DNA of 64,000 bases from Polyangiaceae bacterium (GTDB lineage: Bacteria; Myxococcota_A; Polyangia; Polyangiales; Polyangiaceae): the NCBI GenBank assembly GCA_020849655.1, contig JADLFU010000133.1, positions 40,142 through 104,141 of the forward strand, written 5' to 3'. Position 1 is the first letter of the stretch. Each line of letters starts with the position of its first letter. The notes beneath the pieces were generated by a model. The model was given only the letters and a program-made list of their open reading frames with translations. It was not told the origin of the DNA and made no database searches. Made by a program: the position numbers and the translations under genes. Positions 1,739 to 54,331 of the stretch are shown here, one piece after another.

Positions 1739-3202
1739 ATGTCACAGGACACCCGGAAGGATCCGCGCGCGAAGGTCCTCAGCATGACCGTCCGCTACAA
1801 GAGCGCCACGGTCGATGAGTACATCGAGCAGCACTCGCACGACGTCAGCCGCGGCGGCATCTACATCAAGACGCCGTCGCCGTTCCCCCCCGGCACGCTC
1901 CTCAAGTTCGAGATCAAGATCGGCGAGGATCAAGGCGTCTTGCAGGGCGTCGGGCGCGTCGTGTGGAAGCGCGACGCCGCGTCCGCGACGCCCGAGAAGC
2001 CCGCCGGGATGGGCGTGAAGTTCATCAAGATCGACGACGCGTCGCGCGCGATCATCGACCGGCTCGTCTCGTCGCGCCCGGCCGATCAGCTGTCGAACTT
2101 CGAGGACGAGGGCGCCGCGCCCGCCGCGCCCGCGCCCGCCGCGACCCCGAAGCCCGCGGCCGCGGCCGCCGCGTCGCCCGCGGCGAAGCCCGCGCCGATC
2201 GCGCGCAAGGCGACGATGATGGGCCTCGGCGCGATCAAGCTCCCCGAGATCGCCGCGACGCCGACGATCGAGAAGGCGGACGCCGGCTTCTTCCCCTCGT
2301 CGGCGACGCCGGCCGAGCAGCCCCCACCGCAGGAGCGCACGGTCTACAAGCAGGCGGCCGAGCTGCTCGAGGAGGCGCTGAAGGAGGCGGGCGGCTCGAT
2401 GGGCGAGGTGAGCGAGGCCCCGCTGTTCGACAAGAAGGCCGAGCCGCCCGCGACCACCGCCGCGCCGCCGACGAAGGCGGAGCCGGCGCCGACCGTGCGC
2501 CAGGATCACCTGCCCGAGCCCGCGCCGGAGCCCGCACCCGAGCCCAAGGCAGAGCCGGCGCCCGAGCCGAAGCCGAAGGCGGCGGCCGTCGCGACGACGC
2601 TCCTCTCGTCCGCGCCGCCCAGCCCGCCGTCCGACCCGCCCGCGTCGCCGGCGGCCGCGCCCGCGTCGAGCCCGTCGAAGCGCCCGCGCAGCGTGCCCCC
2701 GCCGGAGCCACAGCAGGAGCCCTCCGGCGGCGCGAGCCGCGCGCCCATCTACGTGGGGATCATCGCGGTGGCGGCGGTGGCCATCTACTTCGTCACCCGC
2801 GGCCAGGCGCCGGCGCCTGCCCCCGCACCCGAGCCCAAGCCCACGCCGGCGGCCGTCTCGACCGCGCCCGCGGCCTCTTCCGCCCCGCCCCCGGCGGTGT
2901 CCTCTGCGCCTGCTCCCGCCGCGAGCGCGAGCGCCGCTCCGTCCGCGAGCGCCGCGAAGAGCGCCGACGCGCCGAAGCCCGACAAGCCCGCAGCGGACGC
3001 GAAGCCCGCGCCGGAGCCCAAGCCCGAGCCCAAGCCCGCGCCCGAGCCCAAGCCCGCACCCGAGCCGAAGGCGCCTCCTCCGCCGAAGCCCGAGCCGAAG
3101 CCCGCGCCCGAGCCGAAGGCAGCCCCGGAGCCGAAGCCCGCTCCGGAGCCGAAGCCCGCCCCGAAGCCCGCCCCGAAGCAGGATCCAGACAATCCTTACT
3201 GA
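1739..3202 (+). CDS. PilZ (TIGR02266-like) domain protein with Pro/Ala-rich linker, one TM helix and (KPAPEP)n tail
   Basis: ATG 1739 (MSQDTRKDPRAKV). RKDPR plus DVSRGGIYIKT plus GMGVKFIKI matches the myxobacterial PilZ-type module. TM segment is IYVGIIAVAAVAIYFV. The C-terminus is PAPEPKPEPKPAPEPK repeats. Confidence 0.8.
   Translation: MSQDTRKDPRAKVLSMTVRYKSATVDEYIEQHSHDVSRGGIYIKTPSPFPPGTLLKFEIKIGEDQGVLQGVGRVVWKRDAASATPEKPAGMGVKFIKIDDASRAIIDRLVSSRPADQLSNFEDEGAAPAAPAPAATPKPAAAAAASPAAKPAPIARKATMMGLGAIKLPEIAATPTIEKADAGFFPSSATPAEQPPPQERTVYKQAAELLEEALKEAGGSMGEVSEAPLFDKKAEPPATTAAPPTKAEPAPTVRQDHLPEPAPEPAPEPKAEPAPEPKPKAAAVATTLLSSAPPSPPSDPPASPAAAPASSPSKRPRSVPPPEPQQEPSGGASRAPIYVGIIAVAAVAIYFVTRGQAPAPAPAPEPKPTPAAVSTAPAASSAPPPAVSSAPAPAASASAAPSASAAKSADAPKPDKPAADAKPAPEPKPEPKPAPEPKPAPEPKAPPPPKPEPKPAPEPKAAPEPKPAPEPKPAPKPAPKQDPDNPY
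2970..3180 (+). repeat. Tandem coding repeats for (K/E)P(A/E)P units
   Basis: Iterated gagcccaagccc / gagccgaagccc units encoding PAPEPKPEPKPAPEPKPAPEPK... A shorter block of the same type lies near 2512-2580. Confidence 0.8.
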
Positions 3203-3764: not shown

Positions 3765-3858
3765 CGGTCGAGCGCCTCGCGATCCGGGGAGACAGCGGCG
3801 GCCGGAGAAAGGTTCCGCCGCTCGGGGCGAATTTGGAGGATAAGGGCGCCACGCGCAG

Positions 3859-4470
3859 ATGGCCTCGAGCAAGGAAGACCGGCGAGCCCAGATCCTCGGC
3901 GTCGCCCGCAAGGAGTTCGCTCGGCGCGGCTACCACTCGACGACCATCGAGGACATCGTCGCCGCCGCCGGCATCGCGCGCGGCACGTTCTACCTGTACT
4001 TCGCCGACAAGCGCGGCGTGTTCGAGGAGCTCGTCGACCGCTTCTCCGCGCGCCTCGGGATGGCCATCCTGCGCGTCGACCCCGGCGATCCCGTGCGATC
4101 GGTCGCCGACCAGGTCAAGGAGAACACGCGCCGCGTGCTCTCGGCGTGCCTCGAGGACCAGATGATGTCGAAGATCTTCATGGCCGACACGCTCGGCGTC
4201 GACGAGGCCTTCGACCGCAAGCTGCTCGGGTTCTACGACGAGGTGACGAAGCTGTTCGTCGAGAGCCTCACCGAGGGCCAGGCGCTCGGGCTCGTGCGCC
4301 CCGGCGATCCGCGGCTGTTCGCGATGTTCACGATGGGCGGCATCCGCGAGGTGCTCTTCCAGATCGTCAAGCGCGACGGCGAGTACGATCTCGAGCGGCT
4401 CGTCGACGGGCTGTTCGCGGTGTTCTCGTCCGGGTTCATCATCGCCGAGGCCGCGAGCAAGCGCGGCTGA
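3859..4470 (+). CDS. TetR/AcrR family transcriptional regulator
   Basis: ILGVARKEFARRGYHSTTIEDIVAAAGIARGTFYLYFADKRGVFEEL is the classic TetR N-terminal HTH. Divergent from 3255..3764. Confidence 0.9.
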   Translation: MASSKEDRRAQILGVARKEFARRGYHSTTIEDIVAAAGIARGTFYLYFADKRGVFEELVDRFSARLGMAILRVDPGDPVRSVADQVKENTRRVLSACLEDQMMSKIFMADTLGVDEAFDRKLLGFYDEVTKLFVESLTEGQALGLVRPGDPRLFAMFTMGGIREVLFQIVKRDGEYDLERLVDGLFAVFSSGFIIAEAASKRG

Positions 4471-4480
4471 CGACGGCGCG

Positions 4481-7400
4481 TCAGTCGCCCGACAGATCGT
4501 CGAACAGCGCCTCCTCGGTCTTCGGCGTCGCGAGCAGCTCGCCGTGCGCGCCGTCGCGCCGCACGACGAACACCCGCTGCGTCACGGTCTCGGGCGTCTC
4601 GCGCGCGACGAAGCGGAGGTAGTTCGTGCCCGGGCGCAGCGGCACCTCGAGATCGATCGGCAGGCGCGTCGGATCGGCGCCGCCCTTGTTGGAGCGGTAG
4701 AACACCTTGCGCGCGTTGACGAACATGTACGCGTCGAGGATGCGATCGCTGTCCGACGCGAAACCAACGATCTTGATCTTCCCGTCGCGCGTCGCGAGCG
4801 CGGCCGGCGCCACCTCGACGAGCGGCGGCGACCGCTGCAGGAGATCCTCGAAGGCCGCGGGCTCCGCCGGCGCGGGCGCGCCGAGCTCCACGTCGGCCTC
4901 CTTCACGAAGCCGAAGCGCGCCTTGCCGAGCTCGATCTTGAGGAACTCCCCCGAGCGACCGAGCACCTTCGCGACGGTGCCGGCAGCGAGCTTGCCGAAC
5001 GGCCGGGGCGCCGCGGACGGCGACTCGACGAGCAGCGCGCCCGCGTCGCGCGCCTTCGCCCCGCCCGAGAGCGGCGTGACGGGCGCCGCGGGCTCGATCA
5101 GCAGCTTCAGCTTCTCGGTCGCGATCTCGCGCAGATCGCGGTCGGCGACGGAGAGCTCGAGCTTCAGCTCCGCGCCCTCGACCGCGGGCTGCACGTCGAA
5201 GGTGAACGCCACGCGCCGCGTGTCGCCGGGCTGCATGTTGCTGATGTCGAACCGCCCCTCGCCGAGCAGCACGCTGTCGCCGGAGAGGTTGCGGAGGTTC
5301 GCCTGCGTCTCGTGGGAGCGCCCCTTGCCGACGTTCCTCACCTTCAGGTACAGGGTGACGCCCTCGCCCTTCTGGACGCGGCCGTCGCCGTTCGCCGCGC
5401 CGCGGTTGTCGACGACCTCGTACGCGTACGCGAACATCGGGCGATCGAGCGCGCGGATCGTCGGGCGCACCTCGACCTCCGCGGGCGCGTGGTCGCCGGC
5501 CGACTCGAACTTGATGCGCACGCCGTCCTGCCGGCTCACCGCGTCCTTCGGGATGCGGCACACGCGCGGCGCGTCCTTCGGCGTCGGCGCGGTCGAGCCG
5601 GGCTTGCGCCCCTCGACGTCACAGAAGCCGACGGGCACGGTCGCCGTCTTCGACTGGCCGGGCAGCAGCTTGCCGAACACGAGCTCCTTGCCGTCGTAGT
5701 AGCCGCTGTCGGCCTGCGTCTGCGCGCGCAGCTGGTACACCGGATCCTTGCCGTTGTTCTTCACGGTGACCGAGAGCTTCATCGCCTCGCCGGCGCGCAC
5801 CTCGTTGCCGGGGCGGTCGGTCTCGACCTTGACCTCGTAGTCCTTCGCGGTCGGCCCGACGTCGGCGCCCGCGGGCGGCTCGGCCCAGTCGACGCCCATC
5901 TTCGACAGATCGGCGGCGGCCTTCGCGAGCTCGTCCTTCTGCACGCCGGCGAGGAAGTCGTGGACCGCGCGCAGCTGCTCCTTGCGCCCCTGGCCGGGCG
6001 GCATCTTCAGCGCGAGCTCGCGCGCGAGCCGGATGGAGAAATCGGCCTCGAACGAGTCGTCGAGCTCGCCGCCGCGCTCGCGCAGCGCCGCGCGCTCGGC
6101 CTCGGGCAGGTAGTAGCGCACGGTCTCCGCGGGCTTCTGCCCCTCCCGCGCGCGCGCGTTCGACAGGTGCGAGGAGAGATCGCGCTCGCGGACGATCTTC
6201 CCGCGCGAGTAGAGGTCCATCTCCTTCTCGTCGACGGTGACGGGATCGAGCTCGATGTCGGGCGCGATGCCCACCGACTGGATCGACTCGTCGCCTGGCG
6301 TCAGGTACTGCGCGATCGTCAGCTTCAGCGCGGCGCGCTCGGGCGTCACGTCGTTGAACACGAGCTGCACGCTGCCCTTGCCGAACGTCGTCTGCCCGAC
6401 GATGAGCGCGCGATCGAGGTTCTTCAGCGCGCCGGCGACGATCTCGCTCGCGCTCGCCGAGTTGCCGCTGACGAGCACGACGATCGGGTAGTCGGGCTCG
6501 GTGCCGGGCGCCTTCGCCGACTTCTCCTCGCGCCCCTCGGCCGCGCCCACCGTCGCCACGATCACGCCGCGCTTCAGGAAGAGATCGGCGATCCGCACGG
6601 CCTGGTCGAGCAGGCCCCCGGGGTAGCCGCGCAGATCGAGCACGAGGCCCTTCAGGTTGGGCTCCTTCGTCTTGAAGTCCGCGAGCGCGGCCTCGATCTC
6701 GTGGACGCTCTTCGACTGGAACTGCTTCAGCCGGACGTAGCCGACGCCGCCGTCGAGCAGGCGCGCCGGATCGACGCTGCGCACGCTGATGATCTCGCGC
6801 GTGAGCTCGAACTTCTTGTCGCCTGCCCAGCCGCCCTCGCCCTCGCGCCGCACCCAGATGGTGACCTTGGACTGCGGATCGCCGCGCAGGCGTCGGACGG
6901 CGTCGTCGAGCGGCATGTTGAGCGTCGACTCGCTGTTGATCTTGACGATGCGGTCGTAGCGCTTCAGCCCCGCGCGGCCCGCGGGCGTGCCGGGCATCGG
7001 GCTCATCACCGTGAGCATCTGGTCGCGCAGCGAGATGACGATCCCGAGGCCGCCGAACTTCCCGGCGGTCGATTGGTTCATCTCCTTGTAGGCCTCGGGC
7101 GACAGGAACACCGAGTGCGGGTCGAGCGTGTGCAGCATCCCGTTGCAGGCCGCGTACTCGATCTCGCGCAGATCGAGCTCGGTGCCGCGGAGGTTCTCCT
7201 GGAGAAAAGCGAAGACCTCGCGGAGCTTCGCCGACACGTCCCAGGGGCCCTGCACGTTGTCGACGCGGAACTTCCGCTCGGCCGTCTCGACGCGCACGGT
7301 GACCTCGGGCGAGCCCTCGTCGTGCAGCACGATGACCTGCGCCACGTCCTGCTGGATGCGGTTGAGCGCCGAGAGCAGCATCTCGCGCGGGCGCACGCGC

Positions 7401-47880: not shown

Positions 47881-49665
47881 TCAGCCCCCGCAGCAGCGGA
47901 ACCCGACCTCGGGCGACACGAACTTCCGCTGCTGCTTCGGCGCGTCGTCGAAGCACGAGAGGCCCGTCTTGCCGGAGGTGAACGAGCCGCCGCGCACGCG
48001 GCAGGTGTCGTCGGCCGACGCGTTCACGTCAGCGACGTCCCTCGTGCAGGAGGCCTCCCACTCGGCCACGTTGCCGCCGAGGTCGAGCGCGTCCGTGTAG
48101 CTCGAGACCGGCGAGTGACAGTTGGGCAGCGTGCCGGCCGCGTGGGTCGGCACGTCGCCGCCGCTGTTCGCGTACGCGCGCTTGGCCGCCACCGAGCCGT
48201 TGCAGAACTGCCCCTCCGGGGTCGCCGACCAGGTCTTGCCGTGGGTCCACTCGAAGACGCCGCCCGAGGAGCAGGCGTTCGTCCACTCGCTGATCCCGGC
48301 GTCGGCGAACTGGTCGGGCGGGACGTTCTCGCCGTTGCCGACGCGCCCGCACAGGCGCTTGCCGCGCGCCGCGCAGTAGGCGCGCGCGTCGCACCAGTCG
48401 ACGCAGACGACGGGGTGCTGGTCGCACGGCGGATCGGCCGCGACCTCGAAGGTCTTGGTCTCGTCGCAGATCGTCTTGGCCGACTTCGCCGTCGCCACGC
48501 ACGCGGCGTCGATCGCGAAGGAGGAGTTCGCCGCGCACCCCGCGGGCTGCCCGGCCGTGGGCGGGTTGGTCCCGAGCCAGGCCGCGTATTCGGCGCGCGT
48601 CACCTCCTTCGCGTCGATCTTCACGGTCGCGCAGGTCTGGGCGGTCGCGTTGCACTGCTTCGCCGGCGCCATCGTCGCGCAGTCGGTGGCCGAGTACTGT
48701 TGAAAGTCGGCGGCGCACGTCTGCAGGCTGCCCTTGTCGTCGCAGTACGCGAGCGGCTTGTCGTTCACGGTGCCAGCGCCGCCGGCGCCGCCCGCCGTGC
48801 CGCTGCCGGGACCACAGAACGGCTTCGTGCACGCGCCGCCCGCCTTGCCGCTGAGGCACAGCGCGTCGGAGGCGCAGGTCGCGATCGTCTCGTAGCCCGT
48901 CTGGGCGGCGTTGCACTTCTGGAGCGCCTTGCCGAGGCACGTGTACGTCCCCTGGGCGCACCCCGTCGCGGGGCACATGGACGCTCCCGCCGTCACGGCC
49001 TGCGCGCACGCCTCCGGGCTCGCGCAGGTGGCCTTGTCGCTCTTGCCCGGCGACTCCTTGTTGCACGTGACGAGCTTCGCGCCGTCGCACGACAGCTCGC
49101 CCGCGGGCGCGCACTGCCCCCAGGACTGCATCCAGCCGGGCTCGCTGCGGCTCACGCACGCGCCGGCGATGCAGTCTTGACCCTGGAACTGACAGGGCGA
49201 GGTGGCGCTGCACGCGGTGCGGCAGGTCTTGTCGAGGCCGCACGCGAGCGAGCCGTTCGCGCACGAGGACGCGCACTTCTCGGCGTCGCCGGGCAGGCGA
49301 CACCCACCCTTCGCGGGGGTGCCCAGGCAGACGCTGCCCTGCGCGCACGCGTCGTCGGCGGCGCACGGCTTGCGACAGAATCCGAACATGCAAGTCAACG
49401 ACGGACACTCCGCCTCGACGGTGCAAGGGCTCCCTTCGGCCCCGCTCGCGCTGCCGCCCGCGCCGGCCTTGCCGCCCTGCGCCGCGCCCGCCTGCGAGGT
49501 GCCGCCCTGCGAGGTGCCACCCTGCGAGGTGCCGCCCTGCGCCGCGCCCCCGCTGCCCGCCTGGGGATCGATCTCGAAGCCCGAGAAGCCCGCGATCATC
49601 TGGCAGCCCGCGAGCGCCGCGGTGGCGACCAGCGCGAGCAAGGGGCGCATCGACGTCGCGCGCAT
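47881..49665 (-). CDS. Cys-rich lipoprotein with C-terminal FGE-sulfatase (SUMF1/EgtB/PvdO-type) domain; paralogue of 7744..8997
   Basis: ATG 49665 (MRATSMRPLLALVATAALAGC). (GGTSQ)3 spacer. About 300 aa of Cys-rich repeats. KIDAKEVTRAEYAAWL...HPVVCVDWCDARAYCAARGKRLCG...LDLGGNVAEWEASC...VRGGSF...GFRCCGG. Confidence 0.85.
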   Translation of the reverse strand: MRATSMRPLLALVATAALAGCQMIAGFSGFEIDPQAGSGGAAQGGTSQGGTSQGGTSQAGAAQGGKAGAGGSASGAEGSPCTVEAECPSLTCMFGFCRKPCAADDACAQGSVCLGTPAKGGCRLPGDAEKCASSCANGSLACGLDKTCRTACSATSPCQFQGQDCIAGACVSRSEPGWMQSWGQCAPAGELSCDGAKLVTCNKESPGKSDKATCASPEACAQAVTAGASMCPATGCAQGTYTCLGKALQKCNAAQTGYETIATCASDALCLSGKAGGACTKPFCGPGSGTAGGAGGAGTVNDKPLAYCDDKGSLQTCAADFQQYSATDCATMAPAKQCNATAQTCATVKIDAKEVTRAEYAAWLGTNPPTAGQPAGCAANSSFAIDAACVATAKSAKTICDETKTFEVAADPPCDQHPVVCVDWCDARAYCAARGKRLCGRVGNGENVPPDQFADAGISEWTNACSSGGVFEWTHGKTWSATPEGQFCNGSVAAKRAYANSGGDVPTHAAGTLPNCHSPVSSYTDALDLGGNVAEWEASCTRDVADVNASADDTCRVRGGSFTSGKTGLSCFDDAPKQQRKFVSPEVGFRCCGG

Positions 49666-50660
49666 CAGAACCTCCCCCCGACGCTCGCGCCGGCGACGCC
49701 CGGGCCCACGCTCGGCGCGACGACGACGGCCGCCTCGCTGCGCCTCGACGAGACGACGAGGTACGCGCCGACGGCGACGCCGACCACGCCGAGACCGACG
49801 GCGACGTTGGCGACGTTGGCCTGGCTCTTCGCCGAGTCGTAGTCGTCGCCGACCGACGGGGCGCAGCCCTTGTGCGACGGGCAGGCCTCGTCGGCGGACT
49901 TGTACTTCGACATGGCCGAGAGGCCGACGAACGCGCCGACGCCCGTCAGCACCACGCCCGCGCCGCCGATCACGTAGCCGAGCGTGGGGCTCTTGCGCCG
50001 AGGCGGCGGAGGGGGCGTCGCGTCGCTGGTGGGCGCGGCCGTCGGCGCCGCGGCGGTGGCGCTCGAGGTCGGCGCGGCCGTCGGCGCCGGGGCGGCAGAC
50101 GCGTCGACCTCGAGCTTCGGCACCGTGATCTCCTGGACGTCGCCGTTCGCCTTCACCTCGAAGGTCTTCGTCCACGGCTTGAACCCGGGCGCGCTCGCCG
50201 CGAGCACGTGGCGGCCCGGATCGACCGGGAGCTTCGTGCCGAGCGACGCGCCCTCGATGAGCTCGTCGTCGCGCTCGAGCTTGAGGTTCGGCACGCGCTC
50301 GGCGACCTTCACGACGAGGAACGAGAGCTTCGGCTCGAGCGCCGCGGCGCGCTTCTTCGCCTCCTCGCTGCGCTGGGCCTGGCCCTGCGACTTCGCGACG
50401 CGCGACGCCGAGAGGAACTCTCCCCACGCGCTCGCGGTCTTGCCCTGCTTCTGATGGCAGTCGGCGAGGTTGAGCAGCGTGCCGGACGACGACTCGAGGC
50501 GGTTCGACTCCGCGAGCTTCGCGCAGGCGCCTGCCACGTCCCCGGCGGCGAGCAGCTTCTTGCCCTCGCGGAAGAGCACCTCGGCCGCCGCGGAGTCCGC
50601 GAGCGCGGACGCGGCGCAACAGAGCACCGCGAGCGCGGCGCGAGCGTTCCCTCTCATCAT
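49665..50660 (-). CDS. membrane protein with TPR-like N-domain, PEGA-like beta domain and two C-terminal TM helices
   Basis: ATG 50660 (MMRGNARAALAVLCCAASALA signal). ...PGRHVLAASAPGFKPWTKTFEV (PEGA-like). Its TGA shares one base with the downstream ATG (TGATG). Confidence 0.7.
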   Translation of the reverse strand: MMRGNARAALAVLCCAASALADSAAAEVLFREGKKLLAAGDVAGACAKLAESNRLESSSGTLLNLADCHQKQGKTASAWGEFLSASRVAKSQGQAQRSEEAKKRAAALEPKLSFLVVKVAERVPNLKLERDDELIEGASLGTKLPVDPGRHVLAASAPGFKPWTKTFEVKANGDVQEITVPKLEVDASAAPAPTAAPTSSATAAAPTAAPTSDATPPPPPRRKSPTLGYVIGGAGVVLTGVGAFVGLSAMSKYKSADEACPSHKGCAPSVGDDYDSAKSQANVANVAVGLGVVGVAVGAYLVVSSRRSEAAVVVAPSVGPGVAGASVGGRF

Positions 50661-50776
50661 CACCCTCGTACGGTCGCAAAGGCGGAGACGGCGGGCAAGC
50701 TCTTCGACGCCTCGGCGTGGCAGATCGCGCTCCATGACCGCGCCGACGCGTTCTCCGCGCCGGCACGTCGCCGCAG

Positions 50777-51094: not shown

Positions 51095-51448
51095 TCACCG
51101 AGCACCTTTGGCCTCGTCGTAGCAGAACCGGCTGCAGTACCGCCCGAAGTGGAGGTGATCCGCGTGCTCCCCGCAGACGCGGCAGTGCCCAGGAACGGAG
51201 TCGGAGGTATCCGACGCGGCCTGCGACCCGCCCTGCTGCGCTGGGTCGTAGAAGAGCCGCGAGCGGGCACCGCACCGGCAAGTGTGATCTTGGCCCGGCT
51301 CGCCCGACCCGAGCAGGGAGTCCATGAGACCCAGGAGCGACCGCGCCCTGGCCTCACGCTCCGCTTGGGGCCGGAGCTTGCCCTGGCGGCCGTAGAACTC
51401 CACGACCTCATTCCGCCCGCACGCGGGACAGTGGAACACCATTTTCAT
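51095..51448 (-). CDS. small zinc-ribbon protein (117 aa)
   Basis: GAGAGGAG Shine-Dalgarno about 6 nt upstream of ATG 51448. N-terminal CPAC...CRC. C-terminal CRVCGEHADHLHFGRYCSRFC (C-x2-C-x11-C-x3-C, FCS/TRASH/YacG-like). Confidence 0.6.
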   Translation of the reverse strand: MKMVFHCPACGRNEVVEFYGRQGKLRPQAEREARARSLLGLMDSLLGSGEPGQDHTCRCGARSRLFYDPAQQGGSQAASDTSDSVPGHCRVCGEHADHLHFGRYCSRFCYDEAKGAR

Positions 51449-52182: not shown

Positions 52183-52875
52183 TCAGAGCCAGCGCGCGTA
52201 CCGCTCGCGGAGGGCGCCCGTCGGCACCCCGCACGCGTCGAACCCGGGCGCGATCACGTCCCGCAGCGCGGCCACGAACACGGCTCGCCGCGTCGCTCGC
52301 GACAGGCAGCCGAGGCCCTCGAGCGCGCCCATCGCCGCGTCCTCGGGCTCGTCCGAGAGCAGCTCGTCCGTCACCGCGCCGTCGACGATCGCGGGCAGCT
52401 CGCGGCCGAGCCACGCCTTCGCGCGCGCGTCGTCGACCGTCGAGAGGTACGCCCACCCGAGCCTCGCGTGCGCGATCTCGTCGCGCAGCACCTCGTGCAG
52501 CACCGCGCGCACGTCGGCGCGGGTCGCGCGCTCGCGCATCGCCAAGAGCGCCACCGTCGACAGGCTCTCGGTGACGCACGAGAGCGCGGCGCACTCGGCG
52601 AGCACGCGGCGATCGTCGGGGACGCCCGCCACGACCTCGCGAGGCGCCACGTCCTCGGGCGCCGGCCCGCGGACGCCGAGGCGCTCGGCGAGCTCGGTCG
52701 CCCACGCGGCGTGGCGCTCCTCGTCGAGGCTCGCGCGCTCCGCCAGCTCGATCAGCGCACCAGGCGCGCCGACGCCGCGCATCCGCGCGCCCAGCCGCGC
52801 GAAGAACGCCGCGGCCTCGCGCTCCACCCGCGCCCGCTGCGCCCACGTGAGGCCAGCCGCCTGCTCGGGCGTCAC
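52183..52875 (-). CDS. ferritin-like di-iron carboxylate protein
   Basis: Four-helix E / ExxH / E / ExxH pattern: VEREAAAFF, LDEERHAAW, CVTESLS, LRDEIAHARL. Preferred start GTG 52875 overlaps the upstream TGA (GTGA). The track ORF starts at TTG 52920. Confidence 0.7.
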   Translation of the reverse strand: MTPEQAAGLTWAQRARVEREAAAFFARLGARMRGVGAPGALIELAERASLDEERHAAWATELAERLGVRGPAPEDVAPREVVAGVPDDRRVLAECAALSCVTESLSTVALLAMRERATRADVRAVLHEVLRDEIAHARLGWAYLSTVDDARAKAWLGRELPAIVDGAVTDELLSDEPEDAAMGALEGLGCLSRATRRAVFVAALRDVIAPGFDACGVPTGALRERYARWL

Positions 52876-53321
52876 TCCCCGCAGCACGGCGTGCAGCAGG
52901 GCTGGGACTCCCAGCAGCAAGGGAAGCCGGAGCAGTGGCCCTGCTCATCCCGCGCGTGGTTCGCGCACTCGGCGACGCAGGCGGGCGACGTCGCGCCGGA
53001 GCCCGCCGCGCCCGCCGCACCCGCGCTAGCGGCGCCTGCCGCGCCCGCGGAGCTGGCGCCTGCCGCGCCCGCGGAGCTGGCGCCTGCCGCGCCCGCGGAG
53101 GCCGTGCCCGTGCCCGCCGTGCCCGTGCCCGCCGTGCCCGCCGAGGCCGTGCCCGTGCCCGCCGTGCCCGCCGCGCCTGCGGCGCTGGTGCCTGCTGCGT
53201 TCGTCCCGGCGGCGCCGCCCGTCGGCGCGGGGTCGGGATCGTCGCCGCCGCACCCCAGCGTGTGCGCGCCGAGCGCGGCCGAGCCGACGACCAGGACGTG
53301 AAAGAGCTTCGAAGCGTTCAT
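52872..53321 (-). CDS. small lipoprotein (149 aa) with Gly/Ala/Thr spacer and C-terminal 9-Cys core (three PCC motifs)
   Basis: ATG 53321 with GGAGGA 7 nt upstream. MNASKLFHVLVVGSAALGAHTLGC signal/lipobox. Ends SPACVAECANHARDEQGHCSGFPCCWESQPCCTPCCGE. Confidence 0.65.
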   Translation of the reverse strand: MNASKLFHVLVVGSAALGAHTLGCGGDDPDPAPTGGAAGTNAAGTSAAGAAGTAGTGTASAGTAGTGTAGTGTASAGAAGASSAGAAGASSAGAAGAASAGAAGAAGSGATSPACVAECANHARDEQGHCSGFPCCWESQPCCTPCCGE

Positions 53322-53380
53322 CTGTGATCCTCCGCCGCGGACGATGCGCGCCTGGGGCTCGCAGCTCCATCGCAGCCTCG

Positions 53381-54331
53381 TCAGCGGATCGTTGCGCCTG
53401 GGTTCATGATCGTGCGCGCGTGCTCCTCCGCGATCCGCGCCCGCAGCGCCGCGAGCAGCTCGTCCACGAGAGGGCGCCGCCGCGCGACGGCCGCGAAGAC
53501 GTCGACGTCCGGGACGCGCGCGGCGTCGAGCAGCCACAGGTCCCCGCGCGCCACGTGCGGGCGCGCGACGACGTCCGGCAAGACGACGAGGAACTGCCCG
53601 CCTAGGCCGACGGCGAGGTTCGTCGACAGGTTCATGATCTGGAACCCCACCCGACGCTCCACCTCCACCGGCCACCCGTCCATCGGCGTGCCGCGCACGC
53701 CCACCGACGCGACGCTGAAGGGGTGAGAGAGCACCTGTGCGAGCGTCGCGCGCCGCTTCTTGAACAGGCGGTGCCCGCGCCCGGCGAACACGTGGCTGCG
53801 CACGCTCCCGACGCGCTCGCACCGCACGTCGGGGTGCGCGGTCGCGTCGTAGTAGAGCGCGAGATCGAGCTCGCCGGCGACGAGGCGCTGGTTGGCCTCG
53901 CGCGACTGCGCGACGCTGAGGACGGGCACGACGCCGGGGCGCGCGGCCGCCAAGGCGAGCAGGCACGGCAACAGCAAGTGATCGGTCAGGACGCCGAGCG
54001 AGCTGACGCTCAGCGTGCCTGTGTCCTCGGGCCCGACGACGGACGGCAGCGCCTCCTCGACGACGGCCGACGCGCGCTGCAGCGCCGCGAGCAGGCGGTG
54101 CCCGGCCGGGTTGAGCACGATGCGCCGCCCCGACCGCGCGAACAGCTCGCGCCCGAGGGCCTCCTCCACGCGGCGCACGGTGCGCGACAGCGCCGACGCC
54201 GAGACGTGCAGCTTCGCCGCCGCGGTCGGCAGGTGCGCGCTCTCCGCGACCGCCTTGAACGCCGGGATCCACGCCCAGACGTCGCGCGCGAGCGCGGCGG
54301 GCTCGCGCGGCGCCGACCGTCGTCTGCTCAT
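53381..54331 (-). CDS. LysR family transcriptional regulator
   Basis: FKAVAESAHLPTAAAKLHVSASALSRTVRRVEEALGRELFARSGRRIVLNPAG HTH plus a LysR substrate-binding body. Confidence 0.9.
   Translation of the reverse strand: MSRRRSAPREPAALARDVWAWIPAFKAVAESAHLPTAAAKLHVSASALSRTVRRVEEALGRELFARSGRRIVLNPAGHRLLAALQRASAVVEEALPSVVGPEDTGTLSVSSLGVLTDHLLLPCLLALAAARPGVVPVLSVAQSREANQRLVAGELDLALYYDATAHPDVRCERVGSVRSHVFAGRGHRLFKKRRATLAQVLSHPFSVASVGVRGTPMDGWPVEVERRVGFQIMNLSTNLAVGLGGQFLVVLPDVVARPHVARGDLWLLDAARVPDVDVFAAVARRRPLVDELLAALRARIAEEHARTIMNPGATIR

Follow-up and report, generated by a model that had tools for sequence, protein, structure and literature searches.

Organization of the Locus

The reverse strand of a 64,000-nucleotide stretch of DNA from a Polyangiaceae bacterium (called the window here, at its full length) carries two overlapping genes: one for a small, predicted exported lipoprotein and one for a ferritin-like di-iron protein. 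This pair recurs across the Myxococcota and may be a new peptide-modifying system. Every sequence-level statement of the original prediction for this locus was checked, and all but one hold.

The first gene is an open reading frame (ORF) of 149 codons plus stop (52872..53321), read as a putative precursor, with its ATG at 53321 and its stop codon TGA at 52874-52872. The strong Shine-Dalgarno sequence predicted for it, GGAGGA, lies at 53328..53333, 6 nt before the ATG. The ORF is identified by its translation, by its family-wide pairing (see below) and by a G + C content at third codon positions of 0.91 (0.97 for the enzyme gene), as expected of real genes in a genome of 74% GC. In NCBI, it corresponds to MCC6646851.1, a "hypothetical protein" of a Polyangiaceae bacterium metagenome-assembled genome (MAG). 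A scan for promoters and terminators near the cassette found none, which is expected for the consensus used in a region of 74% GC.

The small protein consists of three parts. Residues 1-24 (MNASKLFHVLVVGSAALGAHTLGC; 53250..53321) form a signal peptide with a basic n-region and a hydrophobic stretch followed by Cys24, and contain the family motif K-L-F-x-V-L-V-x-G-[GS]. The lipobox that had been proposed, AHTLGC, is present with its Cys24, but TLGC is, by inspection, non-canonical at position -3, so this residue is a putative lipobox Cys. Residues 25-111 (52989..53249) form a low-complexity tether of 87 amino acids (34 Ala, 25 Gly, 12 Thr and 9 Ser), close to the ~85 first estimated. In its DNA, TRF finds imperfect tandem arrays (53008-53170) with repeat units of 24 and 45 nt and 92-93% matches, and the length of the tether probably changes easily via slippage or recombination. 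The last part is a tail of 38 amino acids with nine Cys (SPACVAECANHARDEQGHCSGFPCCWESQPCCTPCCGE; 52875..52988), of the clade form C-x3-C-x10-C-x-GFPCCWE[SN]Q-x-CC-x-PCC. The small ORF is conserved in close relatives, as all nine tail Cys are kept in the three closest ones (loci L086, L001 and L087). The three Pro-Cys-Cys motifs reported for the tail are all found in the window, but only two are conserved in the clade, QPCC being QACC elsewhere. The C-C-W motif (residues 135-137; 52911..52919) provides an aromatic anchor that is seen as CCW, CxW, GW, IW or GF in nearly all relatives.

The stop codon of the small ORF overlaps the GTG (52875-52873) of the second gene in the sequence GTGA (52872..52875), exactly where this overlap had been predicted. 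From this GTG, a ferritin-like di-iron protein of 230 amino acids is encoded (52183..52875). Three start options are open for the enzyme: the GTG at 52875 (-4), a GTG at 52887 (-16) and a TTG at 52920 (-49). Only at -4 do all four members of the window's clade have a start codon, which is an ATG in L087.

Conservation of the Pair

A scan of one genome per species gave 369 relatives of the enzyme, and the best 80 of these matches were examined as loci. Almost all belong to the Myxococcota (Sorangium, Polyangium, Enhygromyxa, Anaeromyxobacter, Myxococcaceae, Haliangiales and Kofleriaceae). At no fewer than 73 of the ~78 loci with intact upstream DNA, a small ORF immediately precedes the enzyme gene in the same orientation. 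The original prediction was to be abandoned if the enzyme never adjoined such ORFs or if the small ORF was unconserved in close relatives. The pairing is real, coupled and repeated across Myxococcota, and the prediction thus passes its own tests.

The coupling of the two genes can be followed at 72 loci. The start codon of the enzyme gene lies within an 8-nt overlap or a 3-nt gap of the small-ORF stop at ~50 of them, about two-thirds, and an ATGA or GTGA start at -4 is available at 25. At the other ~20 loci, the nearest in-frame start is farther away, with up to 25 nt of overlap or a gap of up to 14 nt. Relative to the small ORF, the enzyme gene is in frame -1, +1 or 0 depending on the clade, and some loci have gaps.

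The pair was also searched from the side of the small protein. Its signal motif, [KR]-L-F-x-V-L-V-x-G-G, recurs across the family, and all 50 occurrences in a six-frame translation of 809 kb are the small ORF of the cassette. The back-translated motif was then compared with metagenome contigs, where the enzyme was called by a hidden Markov model built from 83 relatives. Among the 61 signal-like small ORFs obtained, 40 have a ferritin-like ORF at their junction; five others have too little downstream DNA and ~5 are chance matches, so 40 of the ~51 genuine small ORFs with enough downstream sequence adjoin an enzyme gene.

Small ORFs with the signal motif and an end of the type ...LPDGGHLPNPDGGPLGW, ...GGAKTW or ...GGIGGW, with no ferritin-like neighbor, are found in L117, L158, L163 (also L089, L178 and L204), L140 and L202. 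In L202, a membrane adenylate-cyclase-like ORF follows the small ORF in place of the enzyme. Two tandem small ORFs with slightly different tails (...GGPQGW and ...GGTPGW) precede a single enzyme gene in L175, and two tandem small ORFs are also present in each of the short contigs L119 and L191. By analogy, such tandem copies resemble the multi-copy genes often seen for precursor peptides.

L209, a contig with Planctomycete-type PSD/PSCyt domains, encodes P0021, which is very distantly related to the enzyme (27% identity). There, an overlapping upstream small lipoprotein (2763..3050) has six Cys and an LPDGG motif but no Trp, and a second Cys-rich small ORF (3855..4139) overlaps the 3' end of the enzyme gene.

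Conserved Features of the Small Protein

The signal peptide is the best-conserved part of the small protein. Between tail classes, the identity of its 12-mer is 51-57%, against 37-38% for the enzyme; judged from these alignments, a signal peptide more conserved than the enzyme appears leader-like. By inspection, a basic n-region and a hydrophobic h-region are followed 18-25 residues later by a Cys in most clades, and the Anaeromyxobacter proteins have AxA sites in place of the lipobox Cys. A twin-arginine motif occurs in none of ~70 small ORFs: a single basic residue, often Lys, precedes the L-F. The tether varies from ~20 to 190 amino acids among relatives, and its composition is free to vary. 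The tail is short (5-45 amino acids) and has one aromatic anchor in nearly all relatives.

The tails fall into classes, each of which corresponds to one clade of the enzyme tree. Sorangium and Polyangium have ...DPCGCPCCW...EPCC..FC...GCCGG and the Haliangiales ...GRGF[VI]L[SAG]; further classes are ...ECCWGTMC, ...GLCSW, ...GKCAWF, ...PPGW, ...GPLIW, ...GVKGW and ...WLSWV. Several single genomes contain two pairs with different tails (L014/L033, L041/L061, L029/L035, L037/L054, L068/L077 and L063/L079).

About half of the related small ORFs have no Cys in their tail and end in ...PPGW, ...GVKGW, ...GPLIW or ...GRGFVLS. The thiol-rich Pro-Cys-Cys core, which had been expected as a shared feature, is therefore confined to part of the family, and a generic thiol-rich metal-binding module cannot be the family function. 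What is conserved, as far as the sequences indicate, is not Cys-richness but the signal motif, a predicted disordered tether and an aromatic tail. The small protein of the window also differs from metallothionein-like proteins: its tail has conserved Trp, Phe and His, and a signal peptide is present. Nine diverse small ORFs gave no Pfam or NCBIfam match above threshold.

In Trp tails with Cys, 1, 3, 5, 7, 9 or 11 Cys are found beyond the lipobox Cys. The count is odd at all 34 such loci (L007-L085, L002 and the window), in ~10 lineages, and a Cys stands at W-1 or W-2 in every one of these tails. The sole even number (four) belongs to L080, which has a Phe-type tail. Ten independent lineages would all be odd with a probability of ~1/1000 if odd and even were equally likely. 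An odd number suggests that one Cys is left out of disulfides.

The Ferritin-Like Di-Iron Protein

The E/ExxH/E/ExxH arrangement that led to the assignment of the second gene is supported both by the conservation of the ligands and by the predicted fold. The six ligand codons lie between 52468 and 52824, on the same strand as the gene: E18 (52824-52822), E52 (52722-52720), H55 (52713-52711), E103 (52569-52567), E133 (52479-52477) and H136 (52470-52468). Across the 83 relatives, phylum-wide, the set E18, E52xxH55, E103 and E133xxH136 is 99-100% conserved, and more than 30 further positions are conserved besides these six. The ligand motifs take the form D-E-x-R-H and D-E-[VI]-x-H-A-R-L-G-W; in the window, DEIAHARLGW starts at 52482. 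Two near-invariant Cys stand beside the metal site of the family, Cys59 (four residues after H55, 99%) and Cys100 (three residues before E103, 92%).

At residues 58-60 (52696..52704), the enzyme of the window has W-A-T where 99% of the family has x-C-x, as seen in the column statistics and in a DNA alignment with L086, L001 and L087, which have L-C-V. The DNA of W-A-T looks like a compensated change across three codons. The loss of Cys59 is probably no assembly error, because an independent Joint Genome Institute contig encodes an identical protein (P0001).

The AlphaFold2 model of the enzyme consists of long paired helices (predicted local distance difference test score, pLDDT, 95.9; predicted template-modeling score 0.92). 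Its best PDB neighbor in Foldseek is cyanobacterial aldehyde-deformylating oxygenase (ADO; template-modeling score 0.66, 17% identity), followed by PaaC/PaaA, AurF and CmlI. All matches are ferritin-like di-iron proteins, and the model contains the predicted four-helix-bundle core. The modeled fold resembles that of di-iron oxygenases with a capped substrate channel rather than that of storage ferritins. Inspection of the enzyme N-termini revealed no hydrophobic signal-like segment.

Curated families do not include this protein. Its best Pfam match, DUF455, reaches 13.7 bits where the cut-off is 34.3, and NCBIfam gave no match; its relatives have only weak, scattered Pfam matches (DUF455, AurF, Rubrerythrin and Ferritin). 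A profile search of the PDB found marginal matches to designed di-iron proteins and to EncC. A role as encapsulin cargo was dropped, as the targeting peptide and the shell gene are both absent. By its ligands and its predicted fold, the enzyme thus belongs to the ferritin-like di-iron superfamily and to no curated family within it. The family itself is large and unnamed: a word-indexed search found 22 relatives, and when 1.84 billion cluster representatives were searched exhaustively with a profile, 1,470 matched at E <= 1e-30, counted as clusters at 50% identity, and 9,602 at E <= 1e-10.

A Sister Family with Both Parts in One Chain

Two distant matches of the enzyme, P0019 and P0020, have their own lipoprotein signal and a Cys-containing N-terminal domain. 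A search with P0019 gave 276 relatives in Nannocystis, Sorangium, Polyangium and Minicystis. They are named only "ferritin-like domain-containing protein" and are lipoproteins of 340-480 amino acids (P0182, P0226, P0235 and others). The fused and the split family are clearly homologous in hhalign (probability 99.95%, E = 3e-38). Furthermore, an in-frame fusion of 417 amino acids, P0138, is found among the 150 best representatives of the family.

A segment C-C-Y-x8-C-x2-G-R-P recurs in 84 fused members, in which C83, C94, G97, R98 and P99 are as invariant as the ligands, and C84 and Y85 are conserved to at least 90%. The tails of the split family are colinear with this segment: CCY has its counterpart in CCW, and the fused GRP[FYL][LV] has two, the Haliangiales tail GRGFVL[SA]-stop and, in the L004/L005 clade, the enzyme's N-terminal G-R-L-T-S-R-P-L. 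The ORF boundary thus falls at varying points of one ancestral architecture, which points to gene fission or fusion. A lipobox Cys is present in nearly all fused members, and 21 of the 84 have an FRRxL motif resembling twin-arginine translocation (Tat) signals.

The AlphaFold2 model of the fused protein P0182 (pLDDT 91.3) has a confident beta N-terminal domain, one strand of which contains CCY, and a pLDDT below 50 in the invariant C94-G97 loop; the model gives no contact information. In Foldseek, P0182 has only weak matches, to R2-like ligand-binding oxidase (R2lox).

Neighboring Genes

A gene for a LysR-family transcriptional regulator of 316 amino acids (53381..54331, reverse strand) lies upstream of the small ORF, its end 59 nt away on the same strand, as originally described. 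It has both the N-terminal HTH_1 domain (Pfam, E = 6.5e-16) and the LysR substrate-binding domain (LysR_substrate, E = 1.4e-21), and is thus a LysR-type protein. The order LysR-small ORF-enzyme is also found in L001, L086 and L087; the link to LysR holds in the window's clade but not elsewhere in the family. All-against-all clustering of the flanking ORFs of the 83 loci revealed no conserved third gene: apart from the enzyme gene, with its antisense shadows, no ORF formed a widespread cluster. No second copy of the cassette is present within the window.

In the Myxococcales MAG locus L004 (930..1184 and 4882..6620), the pair, whose tail is Cys-free, is flanked on one side by an HMBD heavy-metal-binding protein and on the other by a small lipoprotein with a multicopper oxidase, and a two-component system then follows. 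This copper-type context was unseen at other loci.

Two further observations concern the window itself. An ORF on the same strand (47881..49665) encodes a lipoprotein of 594 amino acids that contains many Cys, a tether rich in Gly, Gln and Ser, and an FGE-sulfatase domain at its C-terminal end (Pfam, E = 7e-16). One base of its ATG also belongs to the stop codon of a preceding ORF of 356 amino acids (49665..50735, reverse strand), which has no Pfam match. The window thus has a second tethered, Cys-rich lipoprotein whose gene shows stop/start coupling. An ORF of 117 amino acids (51095..51448, reverse strand), ~730 nt downstream of the enzyme gene, has a zinc-ribbon-like spacing, CPAC...CRC...CRVC...C..C. 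It has only marginal Pfam and NCBIfam matches (DUF7560 and YacG) and is not kept beside the cassette elsewhere.

Proposed Maturation of the Tail and Alternative Explanations

The anatomy of the cassette, the conservation and coupling of the pair, the co-diversification of its members, the intact ligand set and the predicted fold are directly established. Since pairing is obligatory, coupling conserved and diversification joint, and since fusions exist, the two proteins probably work on or with each other. The enzymes are signal-less, their partners lack a twin Arg and the frames exclude a common recoding; hence, the cytoplasm before export would be the sole place where they can meet. Because the enzyme tolerates being fused outside or split inside, the N-terminal module itself is most simply the target. 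This, the oxygenase-type fold, the tail's aromatic anchor and the Cys left unpaired all point to an oxidation that matures the tail before the protein is exported by Sec and lipidated. Our preferred reading, at a probability of about 0.42, is a self-contained maturation cassette of two genes, in which a lipopeptide destined for export has its tail matured in the cytoplasm by a di-iron oxygenase. Of the two possibilities originally offered, the comparative data fit a precursor of the RiPP type (peptides synthesized ribosomally and modified post-translationally) plus an oxidase better than a thiol-rich metal-binding or redox module.

We infer an action of the enzyme on the tail, and the order of events could be as follows. 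The small ORF would be made as a pre-lipoprotein, with the [KR]LFxVLVxGG signal and lipobox Cys, the disordered tether and the short tail. Ribosomes finishing it would re-initiate at the overlapping GTG and produce the ferritin-like protein, which, being signal-less, would stay in the cytoplasm. This O2-dependent di-iron enzyme, of the ADO/AurF/R2lox structural type, would bind the tail of the unexported precursor and possibly also its conserved signal peptide. It would then oxidatively modify the tail at or beside the conserved aromatic residue, in the window the C-C-W of ...GFPCCWESQ..., perhaps by joining Cys and Trp via the Cys left after disulfide pairing or by hydroxylating the Trp. The modified peptide would be exported by Sec, lipidated at Cys24 and displayed in the envelope on its tether of 87 amino acids, where the eight remaining Cys could form four disulfides. 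A Cys-Trp link, Trp hydroxylation or the formation of a quinone is conjecture.

Several points weigh against this reading. Stop/start coupling should yield the two proteins in nearly equal amounts (~1:1), an uncommon ratio between a catalytic enzyme and its substrate. Two Enhygromyxa salina genomes (L009 and L011) have the enzyme without the small ORF, and ~11 genuine small ORFs in metagenome contigs have no adjoining enzyme gene. The enzyme of the window has Ala59 and is, hence, without the Cys one helical turn after the ligand H55. In the fused relatives, about a quarter of which have Tat-like signals, the enzyme domain ends up outside the cytoplasm, and the real job of the enzyme could instead be done there. 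With about half of the tails Cys-free and Phe in place of Trp in the Haliangiales, no single chemistry is obvious. The two-gene cassette contains no protease, transporter or RiPP recognition element, and contact between enzyme and tail, or a modification of the tail, is suggested by comparative anatomy alone.

The two proteins could also have separate functions. In that case, a thiol-rich or metal-binding peptide in the envelope and a ferritin-like protein acting on iron or peroxide in the cytoplasm would both contribute to metal or redox homeostasis, controlled by the LysR regulator, without one being the substrate of the other. This would account for the nine Cys of the window tail, the LysR gene conserved in the clade, the position of the L004 pair near a multicopper oxidase and an HMBD protein, and the weak Rubrerythrin and Ferritin matches of some members. 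However, Cys-richness is missing from about half of the family, the neighborhood is otherwise unconserved, and the predicted fold is that of the capped-channel oxygenases, not of the storage ferritins. The match between tail class and enzyme clade, the paralogous pairs within one genome and the fusions would, moreover, be unexpected for mere co-regulation. We therefore regard separate functions as unlikely.

A stoichiometric complex appears more doubtful still. In it, the tail of the lipoprotein would be a docking element that completes or holds the ferritin-like protein, a counterpart of the N-terminal module of the fused family, and the working unit would be a membrane-tethered di-iron oxidase for another substrate. 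The 1:1 coupling across the family and the co-diversification of tail and enzyme would be natural in such a complex. The fused relatives, lipoproteins with the enzyme domain behind their signal, point the same way (21 of 84 with a Tat-type RR motif), as does an ORF boundary that slides across the colinear CCY/GRP region. The complex would require the signal-less enzyme to be co-exported as a hitchhiker. Sec, however, cannot carry a folded partner, and no dedicated exporter is conserved in the flanks of the 83 loci. The Tat pathway needs RR, rarely KR, whereas RR is found in none of the ~70 small ORFs and only in part of the fused family. Tat hitchhiking was ruled out by the missing RR in the small ORFs.

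Variable tails that co-vary with a downstream partner, overlapping genes and a lipoprotein signal on the small ORF also recall a polymorphic effector or bacteriocin-like lipopeptide with a cytoplasmic immunity protein of the SitA/SitI type, as SitA toxins are lipoproteins with adjacent immunity genes. This relation is very improbable here: unlike immunity proteins, the partner has a di-iron site whose six residues are invariant, with more than 30 other positions also conserved, the tails have 5-45 amino acids and no toxin domain, and a fusion of toxin and immunity protein in one lipoprotein would be senseless. A frameshift or readthrough at the overlap, yielding one lipoprotein-enzyme chain, is barely credible despite the fused homologues, the 417-amino-acid in-frame fusion P0138 and an enzyme frame that is open upstream of the stop in many loci, as no slippery site is evident at TGCGGGGAGTGA and no single mechanism fits relative frames of -1, +1 and 0 and gaps, by which recoding was ruled out. 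The remaining probability is assigned to something else.

Comparison with Known Systems

No characterized system with this pairing was known to the original prediction, and none emerged from Pfam, NCBIfam and the literature. In the literature searched, no publication describes a pair of a ferritin-like protein and a small lipoprotein; a paper on CorE2 (PMC4937300) proved unrelated to the pair.

The closest parallels are the RiPP-lipoprotein hybrids ("DAG-RiPPs": DybA/DybH and NedA) and ChrH-type systems (PMC13056109, 2026), which depend on multinuclear non-heme iron-dependent oxidases (MNIO). Signal-less iron enzymes that modify precursors with Sec or lipoprotein signals, as proposed before export, are described for these systems and for bufferins (PMC13056109, PMC11626156). 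DAG-RiPPs have a small precursor with a lipoprotein (signal peptidase II) signal and a lipobox Cys; the small ORF of the present cassette has a putative counterpart, whose TLGC is non-canonical in the window. The cassette shares with them an adjacent signal-less enzyme, here too predicted to be an O2-dependent non-heme iron enzyme, for which action in the cytoplasm before export and lipidation is proposed, and Cys-containing motifs near the C-terminus. Some of their relatives have signal peptidase I signals, as the Anaeromyxobacter members seem to do here. Their enzyme, however, is an MNIO/DUF692 TIM barrel, whereas the fold predicted here is a ferritin-like four-helix-bundle di-iron fold with no DUF692 match; having no MNIO, the cassette lacks the one enzyme by which DAG-RiPPs are defined and which all described members have. 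Their partner protein is absent here, and their motif is CPxCGxG, whereas an aromatic residue is conserved in the present tails. Finally, in the present cassette, which is known from sequence alone, the signal peptide itself is strongly conserved.

Bufferins, or oxazolins (BufA-BufB-BufC; PMC11626156, PMC12452194), are comparable in having Sec-signal precursors with conserved Cys, modification by an iron enzyme and a location in the envelope, and in being widespread and long overlooked; ~16% of Buf2 have lipoprotein signals. In the Pfam and NCBIfam searches of the nine small ORFs and in the flanks, there is, by contrast, no DUF2282 or BUF_6/12Cys precursor, no MNIO and no DUF2063 partner. Half of the present family is Cys-free, and there is no consistent link to copper genes. 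The cassette is not a bufferin.

ADO, PaaA/PaaC, AurF/CmlI and R2lox are the best structural matches, ADO for the protein of the window and R2lox for the fused relative. They have the same E/ExxH/E/ExxH ligand set, with a spacing in ADO that we take to be close to that of the present enzyme. R2lox forms a Tyr-Val cross-link within itself and, thus, modifies a protein side chain. The present enzyme shares only 10-19% identity with this group, lies outside the Pfam families, has two extra near-invariant Cys beside the metal site in its family and has an obligatory small lipoprotein as partner, with neither an acyl-ACP (acyl carrier protein) reductase nor Paa partners.

In the maturation of the gamma-subunit of quinohemoprotein amine dehydrogenase (Qhp), the small leader-bearing, Cys-rich peptide QhpC is cross-linked and its Trp oxygenated in the cytoplasm by QhpD and QhpG, after which it is exported, the product being cysteine tryptophylquinone. 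The C-C-W motif and the odd number of Cys would fit a Cys-Trp linkage of this kind here. The Qhp enzymes are a radical S-adenosylmethionine enzyme and a flavoprotein, in contrast to the di-iron enzyme of the cassette, which also lacks dehydrogenase subunits, an ATP-binding cassette exporter and a protease, and many of its tails are Cys-free.

Significance

Judged by comparative anatomy, the cassette would follow the scheme of the RiPP-lipoprotein hybrids, its enzyme coming from another superfamily. With only two genes to co-express, the idea is open to a direct test by mass spectrometry. Should tail modification prove wrong, there would still be the strict pairing, the odd-Cys rule, the conservation of the signal peptide and the fission or fusion relation to exported relatives to explain.

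If the tail is indeed modified, the ferritin-like di-iron oxygenases would join the biosynthesis of ribosomal peptides as a whole superfamily, and the concept of RiPP-lipoproteins would extend beyond MNIO enzymes. A more far-reaching version, which we think rather unlikely, is that the enzyme represents the first peptide-modifying class from this superfamily and installs a Cys-Trp cross-link or a Trp-derived quinone-type group on a tethered lipopeptide; a two-gene cassette in hundreds of species would then give the Myxococcota redox- or metal-active lipopeptides displayed in the envelope. For the family, maturation of the tail would provide a role for a large group of proteins annotated only as "hypothetical" or "ferritin-like domain-containing".

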